Assembly (NCBI RefSeq): GCF_036903355.1
Contig: NZ_JBAKHK010000016.1
Location: 43,812 to 75,811, forward strand
Origin: Enterobacter sp. UNJFSC 003
Lineage (GTDB): Bacteria > Pseudomonadota > Gammaproteobacteria > Enterobacterales > Enterobacteriaceae
Direction of reading: 5' to 3'
DNA: 32,000 nt
Positions within the stretch are counted from its first letter, which is position 1, and every line of letters begins with the position of its first letter. Under the pieces are notes generated by a model, which ran no database searches, was not told the origin of the DNA, and saw only the letters and a program-made list of their open reading frames with translations. The position numbers and the translations under genes were made by a program. Below, in pieces: positions 18,243-32,000 of the stretch.

Positions 18243-18318
18243 GCCGATATAGCTCAGTTGGTAGAGCAGCGCATTCGTAATGCGAAGGTCGTAGGTTCGA
18301 CTCCTATTATCGGCACCA
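18243..18318 (+). tRNA. thrW: tRNA-Thr (anticodon CGU)
   Basis: The 76-nt sequence GCCGATATAGCTCAGTTGGTAGAGCAGCGCATTCGTAATGCGAAGGTCGTAGGTTCGACTCCTATTATCGGCACCA folds as a cloverleaf. It has a 7-bp acceptor stem (GCCGATA/TATCGGC), the anticodon loop TTCGTAA, a GGTTCGA T-loop and an encoded CCA. Its position after proA matches E. coli thrW, a known island integration site. Confidence 0.95.
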
Positions 18319-18320: not shown

Positions 18321-18430
18321 CCAACTTCCTCAAACGTCCGTAACCATCCATAACCTCTCTGATTTATAACGTTTTTACTGCATCTTCAATCCGTGTTAGT
18401 CCATAACCATCCAGTAGAATCCGGTACTGA

Positions 18431-19663
18431 ATGTGTATAGGATTGTGTATATGTTCCTGTTCGGTCTTGGATTCCTATACACAGCCTTTAAACGATATGC
18501 AGATTCGTCGCGCTAAGCCTGAAGATAAACCCTATACGCTTGGGGATGGGCAAGGCTTGTCATTGCTCATAGAACCTAATGGAAGCAAGAGCTGGCGGTT
18601 CCGCTATCGCTATGCTGGTAAACCCAAAATGATCTCGCTTGGGGTTTACCCAACGATCACCCTTGCTGATGCTCGTTCCCGTCGCGATGAAGCTCGAAAA
18701 CTTGTGGCAGAAGGAAAGAACCCTAGTGAGGTTCGAAAAGAGCAAAAGTTGGCTCTGCAAACAGAGTCAGAGAACGCCTTCGAAAATATAGCGAGAGAGT
18801 GGCATCACCTTAAATCTGCTAAATGGTCGGTGGGATATGCATCAGACATCATGGAAGCGTTTAATAACGACATTTTTCCTTATGTCGGAACAAGGCCAGT
18901 GGGAGAGATTAAACCGTTAGAGCTGCTGAACGTTCTGCGTAAAATTGAGAAACGTGGTGCGTTGGAGAAAATGCGAAAAGTTAGGCAGCGTTGCTCAGAG
19001 GTGTTTCGCTACGCAATTGCGACAGGTAGGGCGGAGTACAATCCTGCGGCGGATCTCTCCAGCGCTCTCGAAGTACACCAATCCAATCATTTCCCATTCC
19101 TAAAAGCTGATGAGATACCTGATTTTCTGCGTGCCTTAGAGGGTTATACCGGGAGTAAGCTTGTCCAGATAGCCACGAAATTACTGATGATTACAGGCGT
19201 GAGAACCATCGAATTACGTGCGGCATTATGGCAAGAATTTGATCTGGATAACGGTATTTGGGAAATTCCTGCTGAAAGGATGAAAATGCGTAGGCCACAT
19301 CTTGTGCCACTATCGACTCAAGCGTTAAATTTACTCCATGAACTCAAAATCATGACAGGGAACTATCGTTATGTTTTTCCGGGGCGGAATGATCCGAACA
19401 AACCTATGAGTGAAGCGAGTATAAATCAAGTCATTAAACGGATTGGATATAGCGGGAAAGTCACTGGTCATGGATTCAGGCATATGATGTCAACCATTCT
19501 TCATGAAAATAATTATGACTCTAAATGGATAGAGCTTCAACTAGCGCATGTTGATAAAAATTCTATTAGAGGGACATATAATCATGCTCAGTATATTTCT
19601 CAGCGTCGTACAATGTTAGATTTTTACTCATCATTTATTTTAAGGAATGATCATGCATATTGA
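18431..19663 (+). CDS. int: P4-type tyrosine integrase (DUF4102 N-terminal arm-binding domain plus phage_integrase catalytic domain)
   Basis: The product contains LNDMQIRRAKPEDKPYTLGDGQGLSLLIEPNGSKSWRFRYRYAGK, which aligns with the P4 Int N-terminus as I recall it (MKLNARQVETAKPKDKTY). Catalytic residues are present: TGVRTIELR, HGFRHM and RGTYNHAQY. The start is uncertain: ATG 18431, TTG 18467 or ATG 18497, with the first two overlapping the repeat motifs. Confidence 0.92.
   Translation: MCIGLCICSCSVLDSYTQPLNDMQIRRAKPEDKPYTLGDGQGLSLLIEPNGSKSWRFRYRYAGKPKMISLGVYPTITLADARSRRDEARKLVAEGKNPSEVRKEQKLALQTESENAFENIAREWHHLKSAKWSVGYASDIMEAFNNDIFPYVGTRPVGEIKPLELLNVLRKIEKRGALEKMRKVRQRCSEVFRYAIATGRAEYNPAADLSSALEVHQSNHFPFLKADEIPDFLRALEGYTGSKLVQIATKLLMITGVRTIELRAALWQEFDLDNGIWEIPAERMKMRRPHLVPLSTQALNLLHELKIMTGNYRYVFPGRNDPNKPMSEASINQVIKRIGYSGKVTGHGFRHMMSTILHENNYDSKWIELQLAHVDKNSIRGTYNHAQYISQRRTMLDFYSSFILRNDHAY
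18432..18483. repeat. Candidate integrase arm-type sites (TGTGTATAGG family), attL side
   Basis: The copies are TGTGTATAGG (18432-18441), TGTGTATATG (18444-18453) and the inverted CCTATACACA (18474-18483). The same 10-mer occurs twice next to attR. Confidence 0.6.
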
Positions 19664-21353
19664 GACGGTTACTCTTAAAGGATTCAGGAATTACTCTAAT
19701 GCTACTATAAATTTTGAACCTTCTACATTAATTATAGGTGCAAATGATGTTGGAAAAACAAATCTAGTCTACGCAATAAGAATGTTGCTTGACAAAAGTA
19801 TTTCTGAATTAGATTTAGAGCCAAAAGCTAATGACTTCCATGTAAACATCAATGGTGATACTGTTGATGAATTACAAGTAATAATAAAATTCAAAAATGT
19901 CGATAAAGATGCTGTCGTATCAAAACTAAATGGATATGTTAGCGATGAAAAAAACACCTATATAAAATATGTAGCTTATCGAAATGATTTATCATATAAA
20001 ATATTTATTGGCCATAATGAAGATAGTTATGATGAAATAACTTCAAGGTTCTATTTGAAATATCTTAGTATGAGATATATTAAATCGCAAAGAGATTTGG
20101 ATAAATATATCAGCATAGAAAAGAGGCATCTTCTAAGGCTTGCTCAAGAAAATAGAGAACAACCGCAAGTTGATAGCGATCAACAATCTCTTAGAGATTT
20201 AAATGAACTATTAGAAAATGTTAACTCTAAAGTTAAAGAAATAAGCTATGTCAAACAGGCAACAGCTGAACTTAATTCAGAGTTAAGAAAGCTTTCATAC
20301 AACTATGAACGCTTAAATATTGAATTGGATTCAGGCGCAATAGGTGTTGATCAGTTCATAGAAAAGTTAGAATTAAGTTCAAACTCAAATGGACATAAAC
20401 TCCTTCTTGGCGGTGATGGATTAAATAATCAGATATTATTAGCTCTCTGGAAGTCAAAAAGTGTCAGGGAACATGACGAAAATAGTGAGGTTGTAATATA
20501 TTGTATTGAGGAACCGGAGGCGCACTTATACCCTCATCAACAACGTAAATTATCTGAGTATCTTACAAGTAAATTACCTGGGCAATCAATTGTAACAACA
20601 CATTCACCTCAAATAGCTGTAAATTATCAGCCAGATTCAATTATAAAAATATACTCTCATAATGGAGCATCTTTTGCAGCAAGTAATGGATGTTCAAAAT
20701 GTGTAAGCCAGGCTTGGGATAAGATGGGCTATCGCATAAGCATCATTCCTGCAGAAGCATTCTTTGCCGATGTGGTTTTTTTAGTTGAAGGCCCCTCTGA
20801 GTTGATTTTCTATAACGAATTAGCAAAAGCTATAGGATATAATTTAGATTTCTATAATATAAGTATTTTGTCAGTTGATGGAGTACAATTTGAGGTTTAT
20901 ACAAATATATTAAAAGCTTTTAATATAAAATATGTTGTTAGGACTGATAATGATGCTGGAAAGGTCCCTCATAAAGATGAATATCAATATTCAGGAATCA
21001 ATAGAAGTCGCCATTTATGTGGGCTTCCACCGTTAAAAAATGAATTGGCAAAAATAGAACAATCTCAATTAAATAAGCAGTGGATTGTGCAGTCACCAAT
21101 TTTAAATGCATGTGCTGTTTTTCTATCATTTACAGATCTTGAGGGCGATTTATGTCAGGAGTTTTCAGCACATGTCCTTGAATATAGCGGTAAGAGTAAT
21201 ATAAATGAAGCTGCTAATTATTTGAGAGATAAAAAGGCAACGCGTATGCGTGAATTGATAGCTCTTAAGAGGGTAAATCTACCTGAACTTGCAACTGGAG
21301 ATCTCGTTCGGCCATTGCTTAAGGCTATCTCTTTAGCTAAAGGTGAAATATAA
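19653..21353 (+). CDS. gajA: GajA-like OLD-family ATPase / TOPRIM endonuclease (Gabija component A)
   Basis: The N-terminus MHIETVTLKGFRNYSNATINFEPSTLIIGANDVGKTNLVYAIRMLLDK carries an ABC/AAA_15 Walker A and closely resembles the GajA N-terminus as I remember it. It also has the Walker B/D-loop VIYCIEEPEAHLYPHQQR, the TOPRIM Glu motif VVFLVEGPSE and VRTDND (DxD). I prefer the ATG at 19653 (AAGGA SD 6-7 nt upstream) over 19647. The product is about 566 aa. Confidence 0.85.
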   Translation: MHIETVTLKGFRNYSNATINFEPSTLIIGANDVGKTNLVYAIRMLLDKSISELDLEPKANDFHVNINGDTVDELQVIIKFKNVDKDAVVSKLNGYVSDEKNTYIKYVAYRNDLSYKIFIGHNEDSYDEITSRFYLKYLSMRYIKSQRDLDKYISIEKRHLLRLAQENREQPQVDSDQQSLRDLNELLENVNSKVKEISYVKQATAELNSELRKLSYNYERLNIELDSGAIGVDQFIEKLELSSNSNGHKLLLGGDGLNNQILLALWKSKSVREHDENSEVVIYCIEEPEAHLYPHQQRKLSEYLTSKLPGQSIVTTHSPQIAVNYQPDSIIKIYSHNGASFAASNGCSKCVSQAWDKMGYRISIIPAEAFFADVVFLVEGPSELIFYNELAKAIGYNLDFYNISILSVDGVQFEVYTNILKAFNIKYVVRTDNDAGKVPHKDEYQYSGINRSRHLCGLPPLKNELAKIEQSQLNKQWIVQSPILNACAVFLSFTDLEGDLCQEFSAHVLEYSGKSNINEAANYLRDKKATRMRELIALKRVNLPELATGDLVRPLLKAISLAKGEI

Positions 21354-22975
21354 TGATCCAATTCACTCAGGAACAGCAAAATGCCATAGATTTTCCTGGC
21401 AATATGGTTTTAACCGCGTGCCCAGGCAGTGGAAAAACTACTGTGGTAATAGAAAAAATAGCAATGGATTTGAGAGGTATGAAAAACTTTCAAGGCGTCA
21501 TTGCAATATCTCATACCAATAAAGCTAGCGACGAATTACTAAAAAGATCAAAAAAATTTATAGTAGATGTGAAATCTAGTTTCTTTGGAACGATTGATAA
21601 ATTCTTTTTACGTGAAATCATTTTCAATTTCATGAATCATTTTGCATCTAGACCCAGTTCCTTAAAAATCATAAAATTTAATGATTTATTGCCTGAGCAA
21701 CAAGCTAAAATGTTATTTTTATTAGCTGATGGGTTTGTTATTTTAAAAGAGGATGTTAATGCGCTAAATGAAATCTACACCCTTTATTCTCAAGGGGTGT
21801 TTGTACTTGAAATGGCTCCACTTATGTCTCTTTTTATTCTTACGTATTCACACGCTTGTCAAAGGTATATCAAAGCGAAATATAAATCTATATACATTGA
21901 CGAATATCAAGACTCAGGTTTTATACAACATGAGATTTTTAAATTAATTTCAATGTTTGGTATTAAAGCAGTTGCAGTGGGAGATGCTGATCAGTCTATA
22001 CACGAATATGCCAAGAAATATTCAAAGTATTTGATTGAACTAAAAAATGGCGATAATGGATTTGAACCGTTTGAATTAACACTAAACCACCGCTGTCATT
22101 ATTCCATTGTTAATTATGCTTCAAGGTTAATAAGGCCTGAATGTACTTTAATTGCAGGTGGTAATATACAAGTCTATCGGGTCTGTATCCCGGGGTATTT
22201 TGAAGAAATTGCCTCATGGATCGATAGTGGATTAGAGTCAATAAAAAAGTCTTTTGGAATAAAACATAACAATCAAATTGCTATCCTTGCGGTAAGTAAT
22301 AAAAGTGTTTCATATATATCCTCCTGTCTCAAAGTGCAAAATAGAGCTTACGTGGATGATAAATTTTCCAAGCTAGGTACTGATGTTTCTAGGTTAATTA
22401 TGGATTTGTTACACTATAGATATAATAATAACCACACAGCACAAGATATTATAGATAATTATTCTGAAAGTGGAGTTACAAGACGGCAGGTTAAATTATT
22501 GAGGCGTGAAATTAATCTAGTCAGAAAGATTGATGATTGTAACCTCATCGCTTCTGTGCGTGGAGTCTTAACTCTCTTAGGGGATTATAATCTTGAGTCA
22601 ATACACATAGACGGCATTAGTGAGGTGCTTCAGGTTGATGCAGTAAGGAATAATTACTTACCTATTAATCAAAACGAAGTTCAGATTATGAATATTCATA
22701 AGTCTAAAGGGTTAGAGTTTGATTGTGTATATCATTTAGACCTTTATGATCATGTTTTACCTAAAAGAGAATATCCAGTCGGGAGTAGGGATGTTATTTA
22801 TAAAAATGAAAAGCAGTGTTTGAATCTACATTATGTTGCATTAACTAGAGCCAAAAAATTTGTTGTATTAGTTACATCCACGGAGCGCATTGGTTCTAAG
22901 GGCTACAGAATCCCTGCATTACCATCTCAGTTTTTTGATCGTGCAGGTTTGGAGGGTTTGTTTAAAAAATTATAA
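21353..22975 (+). CDS. gajB: GajB-like UvrD/PcrA-family SF1 helicase (Gabija component B)
   Basis: The helicase motifs are present: I ACPGSGKTT, II YIDEYQD, III GDADQSI, IV LNHRC, V IHKSKGLEFD and VI YVALTRAKK. Its start overlaps the gajA stop (TAATG), which suggests translational coupling. The product is 540 aa. Confidence 0.85.
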   Translation: MIQFTQEQQNAIDFPGNMVLTACPGSGKTTVVIEKIAMDLRGMKNFQGVIAISHTNKASDELLKRSKKFIVDVKSSFFGTIDKFFLREIIFNFMNHFASRPSSLKIIKFNDLLPEQQAKMLFLLADGFVILKEDVNALNEIYTLYSQGVFVLEMAPLMSLFILTYSHACQRYIKAKYKSIYIDEYQDSGFIQHEIFKLISMFGIKAVAVGDADQSIHEYAKKYSKYLIELKNGDNGFEPFELTLNHRCHYSIVNYASRLIRPECTLIAGGNIQVYRVCIPGYFEEIASWIDSGLESIKKSFGIKHNNQIAILAVSNKSVSYISSCLKVQNRAYVDDKFSKLGTDVSRLIMDLLHYRYNNNHTAQDIIDNYSESGVTRRQVKLLRREINLVRKIDDCNLIASVRGVLTLLGDYNLESIHIDGISEVLQVDAVRNNYLPINQNEVQIMNIHKSKGLEFDCVYHLDLYDHVLPKREYPVGSRDVIYKNEKQCLNLHYVALTRAKKFVVLVTSTERIGSKGYRIPALPSQFFDRAGLEGLFKKL

Positions 22976-23387: not shown

Positions 23388-24200
23388 TCAGAACAGCTTT
23401 CTTTTTTTTCTGTCTTCATGTGATCCTGATACCGGTGCTGAACCGGTCAGACTCATCACGTCGTCCCGGAATCTCAACGGCAATATTTCATTCGTCCACT
23501 TCAGCATTAGATTCAGGATAAATTCACGATACAACGTATCTGCATCATTTGTCCCTTCAATAATACCCGGTATATGCACTGAGCTATTCCGCTCGAATTG
23601 CCTGTACTTCATCCTGAGTAGGCTGCTCAATTCAGCACCGTGGAAAATAAAAAAGTCTCGTAAAAGCTCATCGATACGCTCCTCAGTGATGCCATGATGG
23701 AAGTTTATATAGACGTTTGCCTTACGCGCGGTCGCTTGAGCCAGTACCGGCAGCTGCTCTTCTTTTTCAGTAATCAGCCCGGCCAGTTCTGTGGCTGTTT
23801 CCTGTTGTTCCAGATACTCAGCCCGAAGAGCTTTCATCTTCGGCGTTACGATGCCGCCGCTCTGGTTAAGCAATTCCCTGAACTGCGCCCGATTGTCTTT
23901 GCTGGTCTGCTCAGTTTCGGTCTGATGCTGGCGTAGAGCCCGAAGGTTCTCAATGGCTGCTTCTTCGGCCTGTCTGGCCTCCACCCAGGCCTGCATTTTT
24001 TGGTAAAGGTCGATAATTCGGGACTGCCAGTCGGAGGAAAGGCTTTTTGTCAGTTTTTCCGTCTCGCGGGCTATTTCATTTGCAGGCAAACTCATGAGCC
24101 AATCCGCATCCTGAAGCGGTTTTTTTGCCCTCGCGAGGAGTGTTACTACGTGTCCGGTTGCGGCCTGAATCTGGTTTTCAGTCAAGTGTTGTTCTGCCAT
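23388..24200 (-). CDS. Psu/Sid-family-like coiled-coil protein (occupies the psu position of P4)
   Basis: I chose the ATG at 24200 (MAEQHLTENQ), which has an AGGAGG SD 8 nt upstream, giving 270 aa. The protein has long Glu/Gln/Ala-rich helices. The C-terminal stretch ERIDELLRDFFIFHGAELSSLL...LYREFILNLMLKW loosely parallels P4 Psu (IRDRLNDFMQQHGTALAAAL...ALREALLSWLAKG) as I recall it. It lies immediately downstream of the delta-like gene, as psu does in P4. Confidence 0.45.
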   Translation of the reverse strand: MAEQHLTENQIQAATGHVVTLLARAKKPLQDADWLMSLPANEIARETEKLTKSLSSDWQSRIIDLYQKMQAWVEARQAEEAAIENLRALRQHQTETEQTSKDNRAQFRELLNQSGGIVTPKMKALRAEYLEQQETATELAGLITEKEEQLPVLAQATARKANVYINFHHGITEERIDELLRDFFIFHGAELSSLLRMKYRQFERNSSVHIPGIIEGTNDADTLYREFILNLMLKWTNEILPLRFRDDVMSLTGSAPVSGSHEDRKKRKLF

Positions 24201-24219
24201 ATCATTGTTCCTCCTCATT

Positions 24220-24492
24220 TTATTGTGCATGACGGTCTTTAAGAGTACAGGCTGAACCGTAGCGGCCTATGGTCTGTGGCTGACGCTCGAGGGAATCGCT
24301 CCTCGATTCAGGCTCCGGCGGCGCTGGTTTATGGGGTTTCATAATTATCGTGTCGACACTTTCAAGGGCAGTAAATGTGCACGAACATTCAAGATTCTGG
24401 CACTGATACCATGAGCGCTTAACCGATGGAGCTTCATAGGCGCTGGTTCTGGCATGAGCGACCGTGCCACATTCAGGACATTTCAGGGCCAT
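24220..24492 (-). CDS. Ogr/Delta-family zinc-finger late transcription activator (single-domain)
   Basis: The ATG at 24492 has an AAGGAGGG SD and gives MALKCPECGTVAHARTSAYEAPSVKRSWYQCQNLECSCTFTALESVDTIIMKP. This reproduces the P2 Ogr pattern CP.C...AHARTS.Y.....R.Y.QCQN..CS.TF...ESV, at 90 aa. The ORF-track start at 24594 adds 34 unsupported residues. Confidence 0.88.
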   Translation of the reverse strand: MALKCPECGTVAHARTSAYEAPSVKRSWYQCQNLECSCTFTALESVDTIIMKPHKPAPPEPESRSDSLERQPQTIGRYGSACTLKDRHAQ

Positions 24493-26522: not shown

Positions 26523-26842
26523 AATCACGCACTCTTTCCCTTTCACTTCGGGTAGCGTTGTATCGCCGCGCGGTAGCTTGCGCATGGCTGAGTGCCTGCC
26601 ATCAGCAAAACAGCCACCTGCAGCTCACTCTGGATGAAATTGAAACCGCTATTGCCCGTGAGCTTGAAGGATTTTATCTGCGACAGCACGGGCAAACAAA
26701 AGGCATGGAAATCGCCTGCGCCCTGCTTTCAGACCTGATGGAATCCGGCCCTCTAATGTCCTGTCCCGCACTCTCCCAGCTCGGAATAGCCGTAATGGAT
26801 GAGTTATGCGTCCGTCACATCAAAAAGCCGGTTTTACACTGA
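26519..26842 (+). CDS. Hypothetical protein (satellite early operon)
   Basis: A 107-aa ORF with an ATGA overlap with the upstream gene and a GGAGG SD. I recognise no motif. Confidence 0.6.
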
Positions 26843-26856
26843 GGGAGAACTGCATC

Positions 26857-29190
26857 ATGTCAGGAATGAAAGTCAGTCAGGCCGTGAAGGCTGCCCGCGG
26901 TCACTGGGCTCAGATTCTGCCAGCGCTGGGCGTGAATATATTGAAAAATCGCCATCAGCCTTGTCCGGTCTGCGGCGGTAAAGATCGTTTTCGCTTCGAC
27001 GATCAGGAAGGACGCGGAACATGGTTCTGCAATCAGTGCGGAGCCGGGGATGGTTTAGCGCTTGTCACCAGGGCACTGAATGTGGATATCAGTGAAGCAG
27101 CTGACAGGATACATGGACTGACACATGGTCTGTCTATAGCTAATTCCGAAGTCAGGACGTTAACCGCCGATGCCGATAGGGGGAAAGATGCAGCGGCAGC
27201 ACTTGCCGCGCGACTGCTGCAAGCCTCGCGTGAATCTGCCGGAAACACTTATCTTACACATAAAGGTTTCCCGGAGCATATTTGCCATGAGCTGACTTCA
27301 GCTCATAAAACCGGTGGGGTGATGTTCCGCCCCGGTGATTTGATCGTCCCGCTCTATAACGCTGACGGGGTGCTGGTGAATATTCAGCTTATCAGTGGCA
27401 ATGGTAGCAAGTGTTTTCTTAAAGGAGGTCAGGTTAAGCAGGCCTATCATCTGATAGAAGGGAGCGGGAGTTCAGTAAGAAGGATGTGGATTGCGGAAGG
27501 CTACGCCACGGCGCTTGCCATTCATCATCTGACAGGAGAAGCCGTCATGGTGGCATTTTCGGCGGTCAACTTTCTTTCTCTGGCCAGCGTTGCCCATAAC
27601 AAGTATCCAGGATATCAGTTAATTATTGCAGCGGACCGCGATCTGAATGGTTCAGGCCAGAACAGGGCGGAAGCTGCTGCAAAAGCGTGTCAATGTGACA
27701 TTGTGCTGCCACCGGTTTTTGGTGACTGGAATGATGCGCTTGCCCATTACGGAGAGGAATCCACCCGGAAGGCAATTCTTGAGGCTTTGAAGCCACATAA
27801 CGCCAGTCCTTTCGACACGATGAGTGAAGCAGAATTCACAGCGATGAGTGTCAGCGAAAAAGCTCAGAGGGTTCGGGAGCATTACAGGGATGCACTGGCG
27901 GTTGATCCGAACGGTCAGCTTTTATCCCGCTATGAGTCTGGAGCGTGGAAAGTGATTTCTCAGTCTGATTTTGCCCGAGATGTCGCAGCCCTTTTCCAGC
28001 GCCTCGGTGCACCGTTTTCCTCAGGAAAAATTGCCTCACTGGTGGAAACATTAAAGTTAATTGTTCCGCAGCAGCAAAATCCGGCACGTCATCTGATCGG
28101 TTTTCGTAATGGCGTCCTCGATACGCGAACAGGGCTGTTTAGTCCGCACTGTAAAGAGAACTGGCTACGTACCCTGTGTGAAGTCGATTTCACGCCACCG
28201 GTAAATGGGGAAACGCTTGAAACTCATGCCCCGGCATTCTGGCGATGGCTGGACAGGGCCGCCGGGCACGAGCCAGCAAAACGCGACATTATTCTCGCAG
28301 CGCTGTTTATGGTGCTGGCGAACCGCTATGACTGGCAGCTCTTTCTGGAAGTGACTGGCCCTGGCGGAAGTGGCAAAAGTATCCTTGCTGAAATTGCAAC
28401 GATGCTTGCAGGAGAGGATAACGCCACGTCAGCGACAATTGAAACTCTGGAGTCCCCGCGAGAACGTGCGGCTCTGATCGGTTTTTCTCTTATTCGCCTG
28501 CCTGATCAGGAGAAATGGAGCGGCGATGGCGCCGGGCTTAAGGCTATAACCGGTGGTGATGCAGTATCTGTGGACCCCAAATATCAGAATGCTTATTCAA
28601 CACATATTCCGGCGGTTATCCTGGCCGTAAATAATAATCCTATGCGCTTCACTGATCGCAGTGGTGGTGTGTCCCGCCGTAGAGTTATTCTGCATTTTCC
28701 TGAGCAGATAGCACCGGAAGAACGCGATCCGCAGCTAAAGGATAAAATTGCTCGAGAACTTGCTGTGATTGTTCGCCAACTCATGCAACGTTTCAGCGAT
28801 CCGATGAGCGCCAGAACATTGCTTCAGTCGCAGCAGAATTCTGATGAGGCTCTCACCATCAAGCGTGATGCCGATCCAGCATTTGATTTTTGTGGCTATC
28901 TTGAGGCATTACCCGACACCAACGGCATGTTTATGGGAAACGCCAATATTGTCCCGCGCCAGCCACGTACATACCTTTACCATGCCTATCTGGTCTACAT
29001 GGAAGCCAACGGCTATAAAAATACGCTCAGTCTGACCATGTTTGGCAAGGGGCTGCCGTTAATGCTGAAAGAGTATGGGCTGCAGTACGAGAAGCGGCGG
29101 ACCAATCAGGGAATGCAGACCAATCTGGCACTTAGAGAAGAATGCAATGCTGACTGGCTACCGAAGTGCAGTCTCGAAATCACAAAATAG
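26857..29190 (+). CDS. P4 alpha-type primase-helicase (zinc-ribbon, TOPRIM primase, D5/SF3-like helicase, C-terminal DNA-binding domain)
   Basis: The ATG at 26857 gives MSGMKVSQAVKAARGHWAQILPALGV and 777 aa, the length I recall for P4 gp-alpha. It has the zinc ribbon CPVCGGKDRFRFDD...WFCNQCGAGDG, the TOPRIM motifs WIAEGYATALAI and IIAADRDLNGSG, and the Walker A VTGPGGSGKS. Confidence 0.92.
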   Translation: MSGMKVSQAVKAARGHWAQILPALGVNILKNRHQPCPVCGGKDRFRFDDQEGRGTWFCNQCGAGDGLALVTRALNVDISEAADRIHGLTHGLSIANSEVRTLTADADRGKDAAAALAARLLQASRESAGNTYLTHKGFPEHICHELTSAHKTGGVMFRPGDLIVPLYNADGVLVNIQLISGNGSKCFLKGGQVKQAYHLIEGSGSSVRRMWIAEGYATALAIHHLTGEAVMVAFSAVNFLSLASVAHNKYPGYQLIIAADRDLNGSGQNRAEAAAKACQCDIVLPPVFGDWNDALAHYGEESTRKAILEALKPHNASPFDTMSEAEFTAMSVSEKAQRVREHYRDALAVDPNGQLLSRYESGAWKVISQSDFARDVAALFQRLGAPFSSGKIASLVETLKLIVPQQQNPARHLIGFRNGVLDTRTGLFSPHCKENWLRTLCEVDFTPPVNGETLETHAPAFWRWLDRAAGHEPAKRDIILAALFMVLANRYDWQLFLEVTGPGGSGKSILAEIATMLAGEDNATSATIETLESPRERAALIGFSLIRLPDQEKWSGDGAGLKAITGGDAVSVDPKYQNAYSTHIPAVILAVNNNPMRFTDRSGGVSRRRVILHFPEQIAPEERDPQLKDKIARELAVIVRQLMQRFSDPMSARTLLQSQQNSDEALTIKRDADPAFDFCGYLEALPDTNGMFMGNANIVPRQPRTYLYHAYLVYMEANGYKNTLSLTMFGKGLPLMLKEYGLQYEKRRTNQGMQTNLALREECNADWLPKCSLEITK

Positions 29191-29197
29191 GTATTTA

Positions 29198-29219
29198 AAC
29201 CGGTGGAAGCCGGTTTTTT
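29198..29219 (+). terminator. Rho-independent terminator after alpha
   Basis: AACCGG-tggaag-CCGGTT is followed by TTTT, beginning 8 nt after the alpha stop. Confidence 0.8.
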
Positions 29220-29220
29220 C

Positions 29221-29249
29221 TTGACATATGAATAAGCTAATCTTCAAAT
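29221..29249 (+). promoter_or_regulatory. Candidate sigma70 promoter of the SIR2-like gene
   Basis: A perfect -35 TTGACA (29221-29226), a 17-nt spacer and TCAAAT (29244-29249) sit directly after the alpha terminator. A perfect TATAAT at 29264-29269 also exists, but it lies too close to the SD to leave a leader. Confidence 0.5.
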
Positions 29250-29283
29250 ATCTGACCGCAGAATATAATTTAAGAGGTTGTGG

Positions 29284-30381
29284 ATGAAAACTGTATTTGT
29301 GCTTGGTGCTGGATTTTCAAAAGAAGCTGGCGCGCCTATGCAGGCGGAAATAATGGGTGAGATATTTAAAATACACCAAGAGGATTCAAACTATTTTAAT
29401 GGTTCAGATTTTCAGCTTTTTGAAAACTTACTTACTGAACAATTATATTATAAACGTGAGCAATTTAAAGATGTTCAGATTGAAGATATGTTCACTCCTT
29501 TAGACCGGTGCTTGGCGGATAATATCCAGTTTAGAGGTCTGTCTATTGAGCAAATGACAAAGACAAGGGATGCTGTTTTTAATATCATTGGTTTGGCCAT
29601 TAGGAGGATCTTGGAAAGAAAAGGGAATAGTAAGGAATATATTGACCACTTTGCTGAGTATTTAGTGAGGAAATGTAGCGAGAGGCTGGGTGGTAATTAT
29701 AGACAGCATGATCCTGTAAGCGTTATTAGTACCAACTGGGATATTCTACTAGATAATTCATTGTATGATTACATCCAAAGGAACTACCACGGACGTGCAG
29801 TTGTTGATTATTGCTGTTATATAAGCTCCTTAGAAGAAAGGGACGAAACGGTAAAGCCGGGTCTAGAAATGTTAGGAGCAGGTGGTTTTAATGTGAAACT
29901 GCTGAAGATTCATGGTTCACTTAACTGGCTACAATGTTCGCGATGCATGCGCCTTTATGTCGGGTTTAATAAAAAAATAGGGGTTGCGAGAGGGGCAACA
30001 TGTAGGCATTGTGATAAAAATCATGACGCAGTAAATAAAGAGAATAGACTGATATCAAATCTTATTATGCCTACCTTTCTAAAGGATCTATCAAATCCTC
30101 AATACAAAATAATTTGGCAGAACGCTGGTATTGAATTATCTGAAGCTGACAAAATAATCTTCATAGGTTATTCGTTGCCGAATGCCGATTTTGAAATGAG
30201 ACAACTTTTATCTCGAATGATTAAACGAAGTGTTAAAATTGAAGTCGTAACATATGAAAGAGATAAAGAAAAAGAAAAGGATATAAAAAAATATTGGCAG
30301 GCGTTTTTTGGTGAGCGTGAGGTTAAAGTTCATTTATGTGGTGCCAGTCAGTTCATTGAGCAATCCTTATATCTTGAATAA
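29284..30381 (+). CDS. Standalone SIR2_2-type sirtuin-like protein (predicted NAD+-consuming enzyme; candidate defence effector)
   Basis: The ATG at 29284 has an AAGAGG SD 6 nt upstream and gives 365 aa. The motifs parallel the ThsA/DSR SIR2 domains: VLGAGFSKEAGAP (GAGxS), VISTNWDILLD (TNxD, catalytic Asn), LKIHGSLNW (catalytic His) and IFIGYSLPNADFEM (GxSxxD). A CxxC...CxxC zinc ribbon (CSRC, CRHC) follows the HG motif, as in true sirtuins. No second domain is recognisable. Confidence 0.8.
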   Translation: MKTVFVLGAGFSKEAGAPMQAEIMGEIFKIHQEDSNYFNGSDFQLFENLLTEQLYYKREQFKDVQIEDMFTPLDRCLADNIQFRGLSIEQMTKTRDAVFNIIGLAIRRILERKGNSKEYIDHFAEYLVRKCSERLGGNYRQHDPVSVISTNWDILLDNSLYDYIQRNYHGRAVVDYCCYISSLEERDETVKPGLEMLGAGGFNVKLLKIHGSLNWLQCSRCMRLYVGFNKKIGVARGATCRHCDKNHDAVNKENRLISNLIMPTFLKDLSNPQYKIIWQNAGIELSEADKIIFIGYSLPNADFEMRQLLSRMIKRSVKIEVVTYERDKEKEKDIKKYWQAFFGEREVKVHLCGASQFIEQSLYLE

Positions 30382-30493
30382 CTTTAATAAGTTAAGGATG
30401 GGGCTAACTTCACAGCCCTATTCTTTTGGAATAGGTTAAAATTTAGGAAAAGATAATTTTGACCTATCATAAATTTATTGCGAGTGGACCACC

Positions 30494-30517
30494 AACCCGG
30501 CGAATGCTGGGTTTTAT
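30494..30517 (+). terminator. Rho-independent terminator downstream of the SIR2-like gene
   Basis: AACCCGGC-gaat-GCTGGGTT is an 8-bp stem with one G-U pair, followed by TTATTAT. A weaker hairpin, GGGCT...AGCCC followed by TATTCTTTT, lies at 30401-30427. Confidence 0.55.
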
Positions 30518-30546
30518 TATGGTCTAAGATCAAATGTAGGGTTTGC

Positions 30547-30615
30547 TGTTCACTCTTCACTTAATGGTTAACTTCTATCATATTGATATTTCATATAAAA
30601 ATATGATGGTGAATA
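30547..30615. repeat. Second iteron cluster (crr-like)
   Basis: The copies are TGTTCACT (30547-30554), TCTTCACT (30554-30561) and the inverted GGTGAATA (TATTCACC, 30608-30615). They belong to the same motif family as the cluster at 24723-24850. Confidence 0.45.
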
Positions 30616-30688
30616 GTATGTACGCTTTTCTTAAGAAAAAGTATTTTGTTGTGCGATGAGGTGGACGAGTTTTGAACGCTCCCGCCAA

Positions 30689-30710
30689 TGTGTATAGCCA
30701 TGTGTATAGG
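30689..30710 (+). repeat. Candidate integrase arm-type sites, attR side
   Basis: TGTGTATAGC (30689-30698) and TGTGTATAGG (30701-30710). The 14-mer ATGTGTATAGGATT is shared with 18431-18444. Confidence 0.6.
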
Positions 30711-30768: not shown

Positions 30769-30786
30769 TCCTATTATCGCACCACC
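30769..30786 (+). repeat. attR core (partial copy of the tRNA-Thr 3' end)
   Basis: TCCTATTATCGCACCACC matches 18302-18320 apart from one missing G. Confidence 0.85.
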
Positions 30787-31098
30787 TAATAAAATCAATC
30801 AATTAGCGTAAAATATCTAACGGATTGTATCTTCAATTATCATCCTTGATAACATTTGGTAAGCGCTTTTGCGTTGTATCGGCTCAAGTATTGCACAACG
30901 TACTGGCGGGTAGTTACCAGGCTCAAGCCCAAACAGCATTAGAAATTATGCTATCCCTTGAAGCTGAAAGAGTTGCCGCAAGCGGTTAACAACATGTTTT
31001 AAACTACTGATCACTCCGCTAAATGGCTAATGTTCGCGTATAGACTATTTCGACTTATGATTTTACGATGTAGATAAATCATACAAGGAGGATAGTTT

Positions 31099-31641
31099 AT
31101 GAGCGCACAGGAAGAGGAAGGAACATTACGCCGGATGACCTTAGGCGAGATTGCAATGGCTCGCAGAGTGTTCGGTGATTCGATAGTGTATAGCCGTGTC
31201 TGGATTCATTGCGACAGCTATTTACCGTTCGGCCTACAGAAACAGAACTACGCGATGACTCCCAATGGGGAGTTGTGGTACAGAAAATCGATGTACAGAG
31301 AAGACTTTTCCGCAAACTCGGTTTTCGTTGAAGATAAATACGTTTTCATCCATGAATTGGGGCATGTGTGGCAACACCAACACGGACAATGGGTGAGAAT
31401 GCGGGGGGCGTTTAGCTGGGCTGCTGAATATACCTACAGGCTGGATAAAGAAAAGCTCACTGATTACTCTCTTGAGCAGCAAGCCTCTATTTTAGCTGAT
31501 TACTGGTTACTGCTGGTTTATGGAATTAGTAAGTGGTCTTACTATCAGAGGCCTGAGCGCATGGGGATGTACAGAGGCGTAGATATGTTGCAGGATGTCC
31601 CTTCGCTTTACCAAAAAATCGTAACAGGGAAGGGGCGTTAA
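31099..31641 (+). CDS. Small HExxH zinc-metallopeptidase-motif protein (DUF4157-like; candidate toxin/effector)
   Basis: A 180-aa ORF with a strong AGGAGG SD. It contains FIHELGHVWQHQHG, the HEL.HV.Q pattern I associate with the DUF4157 metallopeptidase-like domain of polymorphic toxins and eCIS/T6SS cargo. It has no signal peptide. Confidence 0.6.
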   Translation: MSAQEEEGTLRRMTLGEIAMARRVFGDSIVYSRVWIHCDSYLPFGLQKQNYAMTPNGELWYRKSMYREDFSANSVFVEDKYVFIHELGHVWQHQHGQWVRMRGAFSWAAEYTYRLDKEKLTDYSLEQQASILADYWLLLVYGISKWSYYQRPERMGMYRGVDMLQDVPSLYQKIVTGKGR

Positions 31642-31643
31642 AC

Positions 31644-32000
31644 ATGAAGAACAAAATGTTGCTGGGTGTTGTATTCCTCTTAACAGGATGCCCCGGGCCT
31701 GGTGATCGAATGGTAGATCGTGAATCTACAACGGCATTTATCAAAGGTAATCAAGTTTGTGTGGTGTCGCCACTGGAGCCACAGGAACGGATCACTGCTA
31801 TCCAAATCAACAGCGATAGTAGCGACACCCTTCACAAGATTTTTGATGACAAGCCTGTGTATGTTCAAAAGGGTGACTGTCTTCCTGTATTCGGATTTAA
31901 GTTTACACCTGGAGAGCGGTATAACTTCGCGTATGACGTCCAATCTGGTAAATCAGAATCGCATTTAGTCACCGCTGAATTTTCTTATCCCAAAAAATAA
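31644..32000 (+). CDS. Lipoprotein, candidate cognate immunity protein
   Basis: A 118-aa ORF starting 3 nt after the upstream stop. MKNKMLLGVVFLLTGC carries a lipobox (L-T-G-C) at residues 13-16. The stop TAA falls at 31998-32000, exactly at the window end. Confidence 0.65.
   Translation: MKNKMLLGVVFLLTGCPGPGDRMVDRESTTAFIKGNQVCVVSPLEPQERITAIQINSDSSDTLHKIFDDKPVYVQKGDCLPVFGFKFTPGERYNFAYDVQSGKSESHLVTAEFSYPKK

Follow-up and report, generated by a model that had tools for sequence, protein, structure and literature searches.

The closest described relatives of the gene reported here are SIR2 proteins of bacterial immune systems, and in the first place the SIR2 subunit of SIR2-HerA (Nezha). A functional precedent for immunity from one small SIR2 gene is sole-Sir2, a single-gene Sir2 with NADase activity in vitro, of which a homologue protects E. 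coli against T2 and T4; the protein is ~440 amino acids (aa) long, is encoded in type I-C cas operons as a CRISPR-supervised immune system, and joins a DSR2-like C-terminal Sir2 to a distinct N-terminal part (bioRxiv 10.1101/2024.12.27.630466). In P4 satellites, the interval between the primase gene and the att site has been reported as a minor defence hotspot with 7% of P4 defence systems; assays of P4 cargo found protection by 8/11 incomplete-looking and 6/8 unannotated loci, and a single ThsA gene is listed among the candidates of that study (PMC13586616, NAR 2026). We analysed 32,000 nt of Enterobacter sp. UNJFSC 003 (contig NZ_JBAKHK010000016.1, positions 43,812 to 75,811; this whole stretch is called the window), where a P4-like satellite integrated at a tRNA-Thr gene carries, between its alpha primase gene and attR, a gene for a 365-aa SIR2-like protein. 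On balance we consider it probable that this protein is a partner-less SIR2 enzyme using nicotinamide adenine dinucleotide (NAD+) and that its gene is an autonomous defence cassette in the primase-att slot of the satellite.

What is new here is an unnamed, widespread and partner-less SIR2 family with a zinc ribbon; the site and the concept have recent precedents. The main text of PMC13586616 makes no mention of the 365-aa family, and a literature search with WP_062891749, the accession of the E. coli protein, and on stand-alone SIR2 proteins returned no paper that names the accession or describes the family. An earlier note on this DNA had proposed both a minimal stand-alone SIR2 and a second cargo slot in P4-like satellites. 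The single-gene anatomy and the slot are real, but the concept is preceded by sole-Sir2, which we compared with the 365-aa family by description only, and the novelty of the slot was overstated, because the primase-att hotspot is already published: the minor hotspot of PMC13586616 is at the same position as our gene and likewise holds variable cargo. The SIR2 gene of the canonical P4 hotspot that Rousset et al. cloned and assayed (pFR88, 'SIR2_2') was considered as the same gene and rejected, as its N-terminus and family differ.

Fold, active site and zinc ribbon of the 365-aa protein

The AlphaFold2 (AF2) model of the protein (predicted local distance difference test score 88, predicted template modelling score 0.89) is a single SIR2 domain that spans residues 3-362 and has no additional C-terminal domain. 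It is built of a Rossmann core, a helical insert of ~115 aa (residues ~20-134) and a small beta ribbon (215-258), and residues 270-365 form the final three strand-helix units of the Rossmann fold in the model, with no separate domain, in agreement with the proposal that the protein has no sensor domain. When the model was compared with the PDB using Foldseek, the top 25 matches were all to the SIR2 subunit of SIR2-HerA (8sub/8uae; E=1.7e-11, template modelling score ~0.56), and the next were canonical sirtuins, SIRT5 and Sir2Tm (E ~1e-6). There were 77 PDB matches at E<=0.001, and the best 50 of these 77 are all SIR2 or sirtuin entries. Profile comparison with the HerA-linked SIR2 by HHalign gave a probability of 96.8% (E=2e-10), with the GAG, TNWD/TNYD, HGS and GYS motifs aligned. 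Searching PDB sequences with the protein itself or with its profile gave nothing significant, and fold comparison alone was informative. According to the model, the protein is predicted to be of SIR2 fold throughout, with intact catalytic residues.

All the catalytic and cysteine motifs listed in the earlier note are present, namely GAGFS (residues 8-12), STNWD (149-153), KIHGS (208-212) and GYSLPNAD (295-302), together with the CxxC pairs CSRC (218-221) and CRHC (240-243). In an alignment of 71 homologues (54-93% identity) the NAD-loop residues G8, A9, G10 and S12 are invariant, as are N151, W152, D153, H210, G211 and S212, the four cysteines C218, C221, C240 and C243, and G295-L298. Two further invariant patches, VVDYCCYISS and PGLExLGxGGFNVK, lie beyond the NAD motifs. 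The gene has a ratio of nonsynonymous to synonymous substitution rates (dN/dS) of 0.13 at dS ~0.23 and is under purifying selection.

The four cysteines form a predicted metal site, a Cys4 zinc ribbon placed as in canonical sirtuins. Counted from the catalytic His, the first CxxC begins 8 residues on, and the gap between the CxxC pairs is 19 residues; the alignment of hidden Markov models (HMMs) to Sir2Af2 (1ma3) spans this segment, and in canonical sirtuins (CobB, Sir2Tm, Sir2Af2, SIRT5) the ribbon has the same topological position and spacing. Since the motifs align with those of the HerA-linked SIR2 and the ribbon position matches that of canonical sirtuins, an immune-type active-site motif is joined with the ancestral sirtuin zinc module in one protein.

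We also compared the protein with individual systems. The SIR2 of SIR2-HerA is its best structural and profile match; both are SIR2 throughout and of similar size (~350-400 aa), and they share GAGxS, TNxD, HGS and GYS as well as a defence-island habitat. However, the 365-aa protein occurs without HerA, its catalytic His is followed by a Cys4 ribbon, its helical insert is different, and the identity between the two is 14-18%. With ThsA, DSR1, DSR2 and SIR2-APAZ it has the immune-type Asn and His motifs (TNxD, HGS) in common, and an NAD+-consuming role is likely shared, but it has no PF13289 match, no SLOG domain, no long C-terminal sensor (the DSR-type region of ~600 aa or more is not present) and no TIR, pAgo or APAZ partner. 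Unlike Thoeris, it has neither a SLOG or Macro ligand domain nor a ThsB TIR partner. Deacylase sirtuins carry the Asn motif QNxD; the 365-aa protein differs from canonical sirtuins in having TNWD instead, in its far larger helical insert, and in being mobile-element-borne and patchy. From the fold, the motifs and the relatives of known activity we infer an NADase activity.

The same features bear on an alternative, in which the protein would be a target-specific ADP-ribosyltransferase or deacylase that modifies a defined phage or host protein or nucleic acid, with no bulk NAD+ loss; the modification itself would then bring about protection or regulation. The zinc ribbon and the helical small domain sit where canonical sirtuins bind peptide substrates, the ribbon spacing and the Sir2Af2 alignment over this segment fit such a role, Sir2Tm and SIRT5 are significant structural matches, and the two invariant patches lie outside the NAD motifs. 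A conserved substrate would also fit the strong conservation of the family across phyla. However, TNWD is near the TNYD of HerA-linked SIR2 and is not the deacylase motif, the closest structures and profiles are NADase-type immune SIR2s, and no macrodomain or other ADP-ribose-handling gene was found linked in the neighbourhoods that we scanned. We therefore regard a target-specific modifying enzyme as unlikely and retain an NAD+-consuming defence enzyme as the preferred reading.

The family comprises 1033 clusters at 90% identity (E<=1e-3) and 220 representatives at 50% identity (E<=1e-30), and nearly all members among the matches listed are about 330-460 aa long. DUF4917, which recurs near the gene (neighbour cluster c13), was considered as a relative of the 365-aa protein and rejected, since HHalign shows no relation.

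The cassette between alpha and attR

Homology to an E. coli P4-like satellite without the SIR2-like gene (locus L012) stops at 29169 and restarts at 30488 (blastn and alignment), and hence the cassette corresponds to about 29170-30487 (Table 1), in good agreement with the 29198-30517 of the earlier note. In SIR2-less satellites the alpha stop is followed by the alpha terminator, the crr-type iterons TGTTCACTCTTCAC and the integrase arm region, whereas in the window these three come after the SIR2-like gene. The hairpin at 30494 aligns with the terminator located directly 3' of alpha in SIR2-less elements, and the position of the crr-type iterons is conserved in two E. coli P4-like elements. 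The cassette thus brings along a terminator of its own for alpha and is inserted before the ancestral terminator and crr. This alpha-closing terminator, at 29197, is kept, with stem and loop changes, in the Scandinavium, Pantoea, Klebsiella and E. hormaechei copies. Homology to E. coli, Enterobacter, Scandinavium and Klebsiella islands terminates at 30784-30798, at the attR core, so the SIR2-like gene is inside the element, in its alpha-attR interval, as the earlier note had located it. Across 29200-30600 the G+C content ranges from 0.32 to 0.41, lower than the 0.49-0.55 of alpha, and the cassette overall has 36%, which bears out the lower G+C noted before.

The proposal that the gene forms its own transcription unit stood in part. 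Terminators are present on both sides of the gene (29197, 30394 and 30494), and a ribosome-binding site, AAGAGG, at 29272-29277 ends 6 nt before the ATG. The TTGACA is present too and is retained 5' of a 66%-identical homologue, but a scan for consensus promoters called no full promoter at it (29221-29226). The best -10 element at 17-nt spacing is a weak TCAAAT, and the perfect TATAAT at 29264-29269 sits 37 nt past TTGACA and would leave nearly no leader. TTGACA and TATAAT as a single promoter were rejected, given this distance and a spacing that is not conserved in the 66% homologue. With no promoter called, a weak -10 at 17 nt and a TATAAT 37 nt away, a native promoter for the SIR2-like gene is only plausible.

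The SIR2-like gene is variable satellite cargo and not a P4 core gene. It is found in 13 of 5426 E. coli genomes (0.24%), against 667 of 5426 that have this type of alpha, and in the alpha-attR slot of other satellites there is either nothing or a different gene. In RefSeq the 365-aa product of the 13 complete E. coli genomes is named 'hypothetical protein'; the copies are >=99% identical in 12 of the 13 and 92.6% in the last. Alpha and the gene are uncoupled: an E. coli P4-like element has an alpha 95% identical at the aa level and no SIR2-like gene, and in Scandinavium an 82%-identical alpha goes with a 94.5%-identical gene. In P4-like satellites further removed from this one, the slot is occupied by a 66% homologue (E. 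hormaechei) or a 60% homologue (Acerihabitans).

At the proBA-tRNA-Thr site of Klebsiella variicola (L002-L007, e.g. L006 3825-11098) the P4 core from delta to alpha is gone. These copies still have an integrase, often in fragments, as well as Gabija, the final 45 bp of alpha and the SIR2-like gene, and in some of them an IS3-family transposase lies where the P4 core was; the satellite appears to have decayed to a two-system defence islet.

Homologues also lie in defence islands and on a prophage-like IMG/VR viral contig, where the gene adjoins a CI-type repressor; in Pseudomonas, Pectobacterium and Klebsiella they occupy att-proximal ends of integrase islands. The 365-aa protein had no match in 50,697 phage genomes, and plasmids yielded only ~25%-identical relatives.

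Several observations concern such slots and islands and their surroundings. In E. coli O157:H7 F8492 (L013 5105-6061, minus strand) the alpha-attR slot holds a gene for a different, 318-aa hypothetical protein with no PADLOC match, a further cargo candidate for the minor hotspot. In Pseudomonas aeruginosa (L008/L009 5779-11095) a 56% homologue sits at the distal end of an integrase island, directly 3' of two genes in the same orientation whose products (537-573 aa and 566 aa) have no Pfam match. In E. hormaechei (L086 11488-13053, minus strand) a 521-aa PF13289 SIR2_2 protein is encoded right beyond the 66% homologue, on the opposite strand, and is followed by HicB- and SymE-like genes.

The remainder of the satellite is of P4 type. 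The chromosome before it reads nqr, dinB, frsA, porin, proBA and tRNA-Thr. Gabija fills the canonical hotspot next to the integrase gene and has a G+C content of about 0.29-0.38; the satellite therefore has two separate low-G+C cargo cassettes. Core genes between Gabija and alpha are Ogr/Delta, AlpA and DUF5375. A 280-aa open reading frame (ORF) 3' of delta (23388-24230, minus strand), at the expected psu/sid position, matches nothing in Pfam or PADLOC, and we found no recognisable Psu in the satellite. A third copy of ATGTGTATAG, at 18430-18444, overlaps the int start codon near attL; together with the tandem copies near attR, these repeats are probably arm-type binding sites of the integrase. 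Just beyond attR (31099-32000) lie two ORFs separated by 2 bp. The first encodes 180 aa, contains an HExxH motif (FIHELGHVWQH) and matches nothing in Pfam or PADLOC; the second is DUF7480 lipoprotein-like, and its stop (31998-32000) includes the last base of the window. The two could be a toxin/immunity-type pair.

Table 1. Coordinates of the satellite, its SIR2-like cassette and associated signals in the window
Feature	Position	Strand	Details
tRNA-Thr (CGU), integration target	18243-18318	+	ARAGORN; 3' end TCCTATTATCGGCACCA is the attL core, repeated at attR
P4-type tyrosine integrase	18431-19663	+	Pfam Arm-DNA-bind_3, Phage_int_M, Phage_integrase
Gabija GajA	19647-21353	+	568 aa; PADLOC E=4.7e-239
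Gabija GajB	21353-22975	+	540 aa; PADLOC E=2.3e-192
P4 alpha primase-helicase	26806-29190	+	Pfam Zn_Ribbon_Prim, Toprim_3, D5_N, DUF5906, Pox_D5
Inserted cargo cassette	~29170-30487	+	~1.3 kb; bounded by break and return of homology to a SIR2-less P4-like element
Alpha-closing intrinsic terminator	29197-29222	+	8-bp stem (hairpin 29197-29216) and T-run; part of the cassette
Candidate promoter elements	29221-29269	+	TTGACA 29221-29226, TCAAAT 29244-29249, TATAAT 29264-29269
SIR2-like ORF	29284-30381	+	365 aa, ATG 29284 to stop; N151/D153/H210 and predicted Cys4 zinc ribbon
Candidate cassette terminator	30394-30425	+	12-bp hairpin directly 3' of the stop; RNA fold -16.9 kcal/mol, z=-2.9
Ancestral alpha terminator	30494-30522	+	AACCCGGC...GCTGGGTT plus TTTTATTAT; hairpin 30494-30513
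crr-type iterons	30547-30615	.	TGTTCACTCTTCAC 30547-30560; inverted TATTCACC 30608-30615
Tandem ATGTGTATAG repeats	30688-30709	+	two copies near attR
attR core	30769-30785	+	TCCTATTATCG-CACCAC; copy of the tRNA-Thr 3' end minus one G

Neighbouring genes and the question of a partner

We examined the neighbourhood of homologues at 66 loci from Proteobacteria, Bacteroidota, Acidobacteriota, Verrucomicrobiota and Bdellovibrionota. Any one neighbour gene family is shared by at most 8 of the 66, and the 150 nearest neighbours are spread over 139 Pfam families, which upholds the claim that the gene has no adjacent or recurrent partner. A TIR family is not among the 25 most frequent Pfam families of the scanned neighbours, nor is one adjacent to the gene in the window. 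A complete SIR2-HerA pair is found within ~4 kb at 8 of the 66 loci (L029, L032, L033, L035, L039, L048, L057 and L076); this adjacency could be defence-island clustering or a functional link. Near these SIR2-HerA loci there is often a ~70-aa protein that looks KTSC-like (cluster c10) or a DUF4917 protein. Other recurrent defence neighbours are type I restriction-modification (RM) systems, GmrSD, DUF4917 and PDC-S21, and the Pectobacterium homologues are located in integrase islands with AbiTii or with a methyltransferase and AAA_15.

The SIR2-HerA association is part of the case for a split system, in which our gene would supply one half and depend on an unlinked partner: a HerA-like ATPase, the Gabija of the same satellite, or homologues of the partners found in a sister clade. 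The nearest structural relative functions only with HerA, HerA lies within a few genes of our gene at those 8 loci, and the sister clade is organised as a tight operon of four genes. However, at these loci HerA is always already paired with its own SIR2, in variable order and orientation, and HerA was found neither in the satellite nor near the gene in the relatives of the window. The cargo in the main hotspot beside the SIR2-like gene differs by satellite (Gabija, DRT3 or a ResIII helicase), and there is no fixed partner within the element.

The sister clade, of ~450 aa, has the same motifs and zinc ribbon, a larger helical insert and weak PF13289 matches; its named relatives are Oscillospiraceae, Bacillota and Porphyromonadaceae. 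In the two members that we examined, both on metagenome contigs (L092 5581-9357, L096 5576-9356), the gene is in a conserved tight operon of four genes encoding a ~472-aa protein, the SIR2, and proteins of ~200 aa and ~130 aa, beside AIPR/Dcm-Vsr or DarT-NADAR. Except for a weak match to PDC-M19A, the partner proteins have no PADLOC match, and this operon could represent a multi-gene SIR2 system not yet described. Homologues of the three partners were found neither in the window nor in the 91 fetched loci, which also speaks against a split system; we hold the latter to be very improbable. The identification of this clade (~445 aa) with sole-Sir2 was considered too and is unsupported, as the two members examined are in the four-gene operon and not in cas operons.

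The neighbourhoods are also relevant to the possibility that the gene is a non-immune accessory, e.g. a regulatory sirtuin that tunes host metabolism or the relation between satellite and helper and hitch-hikes on mobile elements. Many loci have no recognisable defence neighbour, and the level of conservation is like that of housekeeping enzymes. However, the distribution is patchy and tracks mobile elements, as the low frequency among E. coli genomes illustrates, the gene is a low-G+C cassette found at att-proximal ends of islands in three genera, its slot accumulates defence cargo, and it recurs beside SIR2-HerA, RM and Abi genes. A non-immune role thus seems to us rather improbable, and we proceed with a stand-alone defence enzyme.

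Proposed mode of action and implications

As a stand-alone defence enzyme, the SIR2-like protein would be present at low activity in uninfected cells and would be switched on once a non-helper phage infects the cell. To judge from SIR2-HerA, ThsA, Avs5 and FAM118, a change of oligomeric state would probably be what switches it on. The active protein would then hydrolyse NAD+ (or transfer ADP-ribose), ending phage production in that cell by abortive infection. The helical insert and the zinc ribbon are the only candidates for a sensing surface. Because both are strongly conserved (about 55% identity across phyla), the cue is suggested to be a conserved molecule or state and not a fast-evolving phage protein.

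A number of results weigh against a NAD+-consuming defence enzyme and temper our confidence in it. Curated models do not recognise the protein: Pfam PF13289 (SIR2_2), to which the earlier note had assigned it, gives no match at E<=1; PF02146 matches residues 201-298 only, at 17.2 bits (E=0.005), below its 24-bit gathering threshold; NCBIfam gives nothing usable; and the best E-value with the PADLOC SIR2 models is 4e-9, against ~1e-107 for a genuine HerA-linked SIR2 with the same model. The expected SIR2 match was thus obtained by structure but by no curated HMM at threshold. The zinc ribbon is typical of protein-deacylase sirtuins, and in HHalign its segment pairs with a cysteine-free stretch of the HerA-linked SIR2; ThsA and FAM118s are reported to be without a zinc module (PMC12700824). 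A recognised defence gene is within two genes at only about a quarter of the loci. The high conservation across phyla is unusual for a phage sensor, and the mechanism of self-restraint is speculative, since no sensor domain or trigger can be named.

A broader idea, which we put forward tentatively and think unlikely to hold in full, is that the family represents unnamed, widespread, sensor-less immune sirtuins with a zinc ribbon and TNxD, which bridge deacylase sirtuins and immune NADases. Such proteins would act alone on a conserved cue of infection (a metabolite, a nucleic-acid form or self-assembly) and may ADP-ribosylate a conserved target instead of draining NAD+.

The Pfam, NCBIfam and PADLOC (2023) models miss the family, and therefore annotations under-count its members. 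For P4-like satellites, the locus illustrates, at base-pair level, the loading of the minor primase-att hotspot, with the cassette placed between the alpha stop and the ancestral terminator and crr. Through its zinc ribbon the family connects immune SIR2 proteins with canonical sirtuins, which is relevant to how the immune sirtuin clade arose. Should the single gene protect, its product would be among the smallest SIR2 immune effectors and would offer a clean model for the off/on control of an NAD+-destroying enzyme that has neither sensor nor partner.

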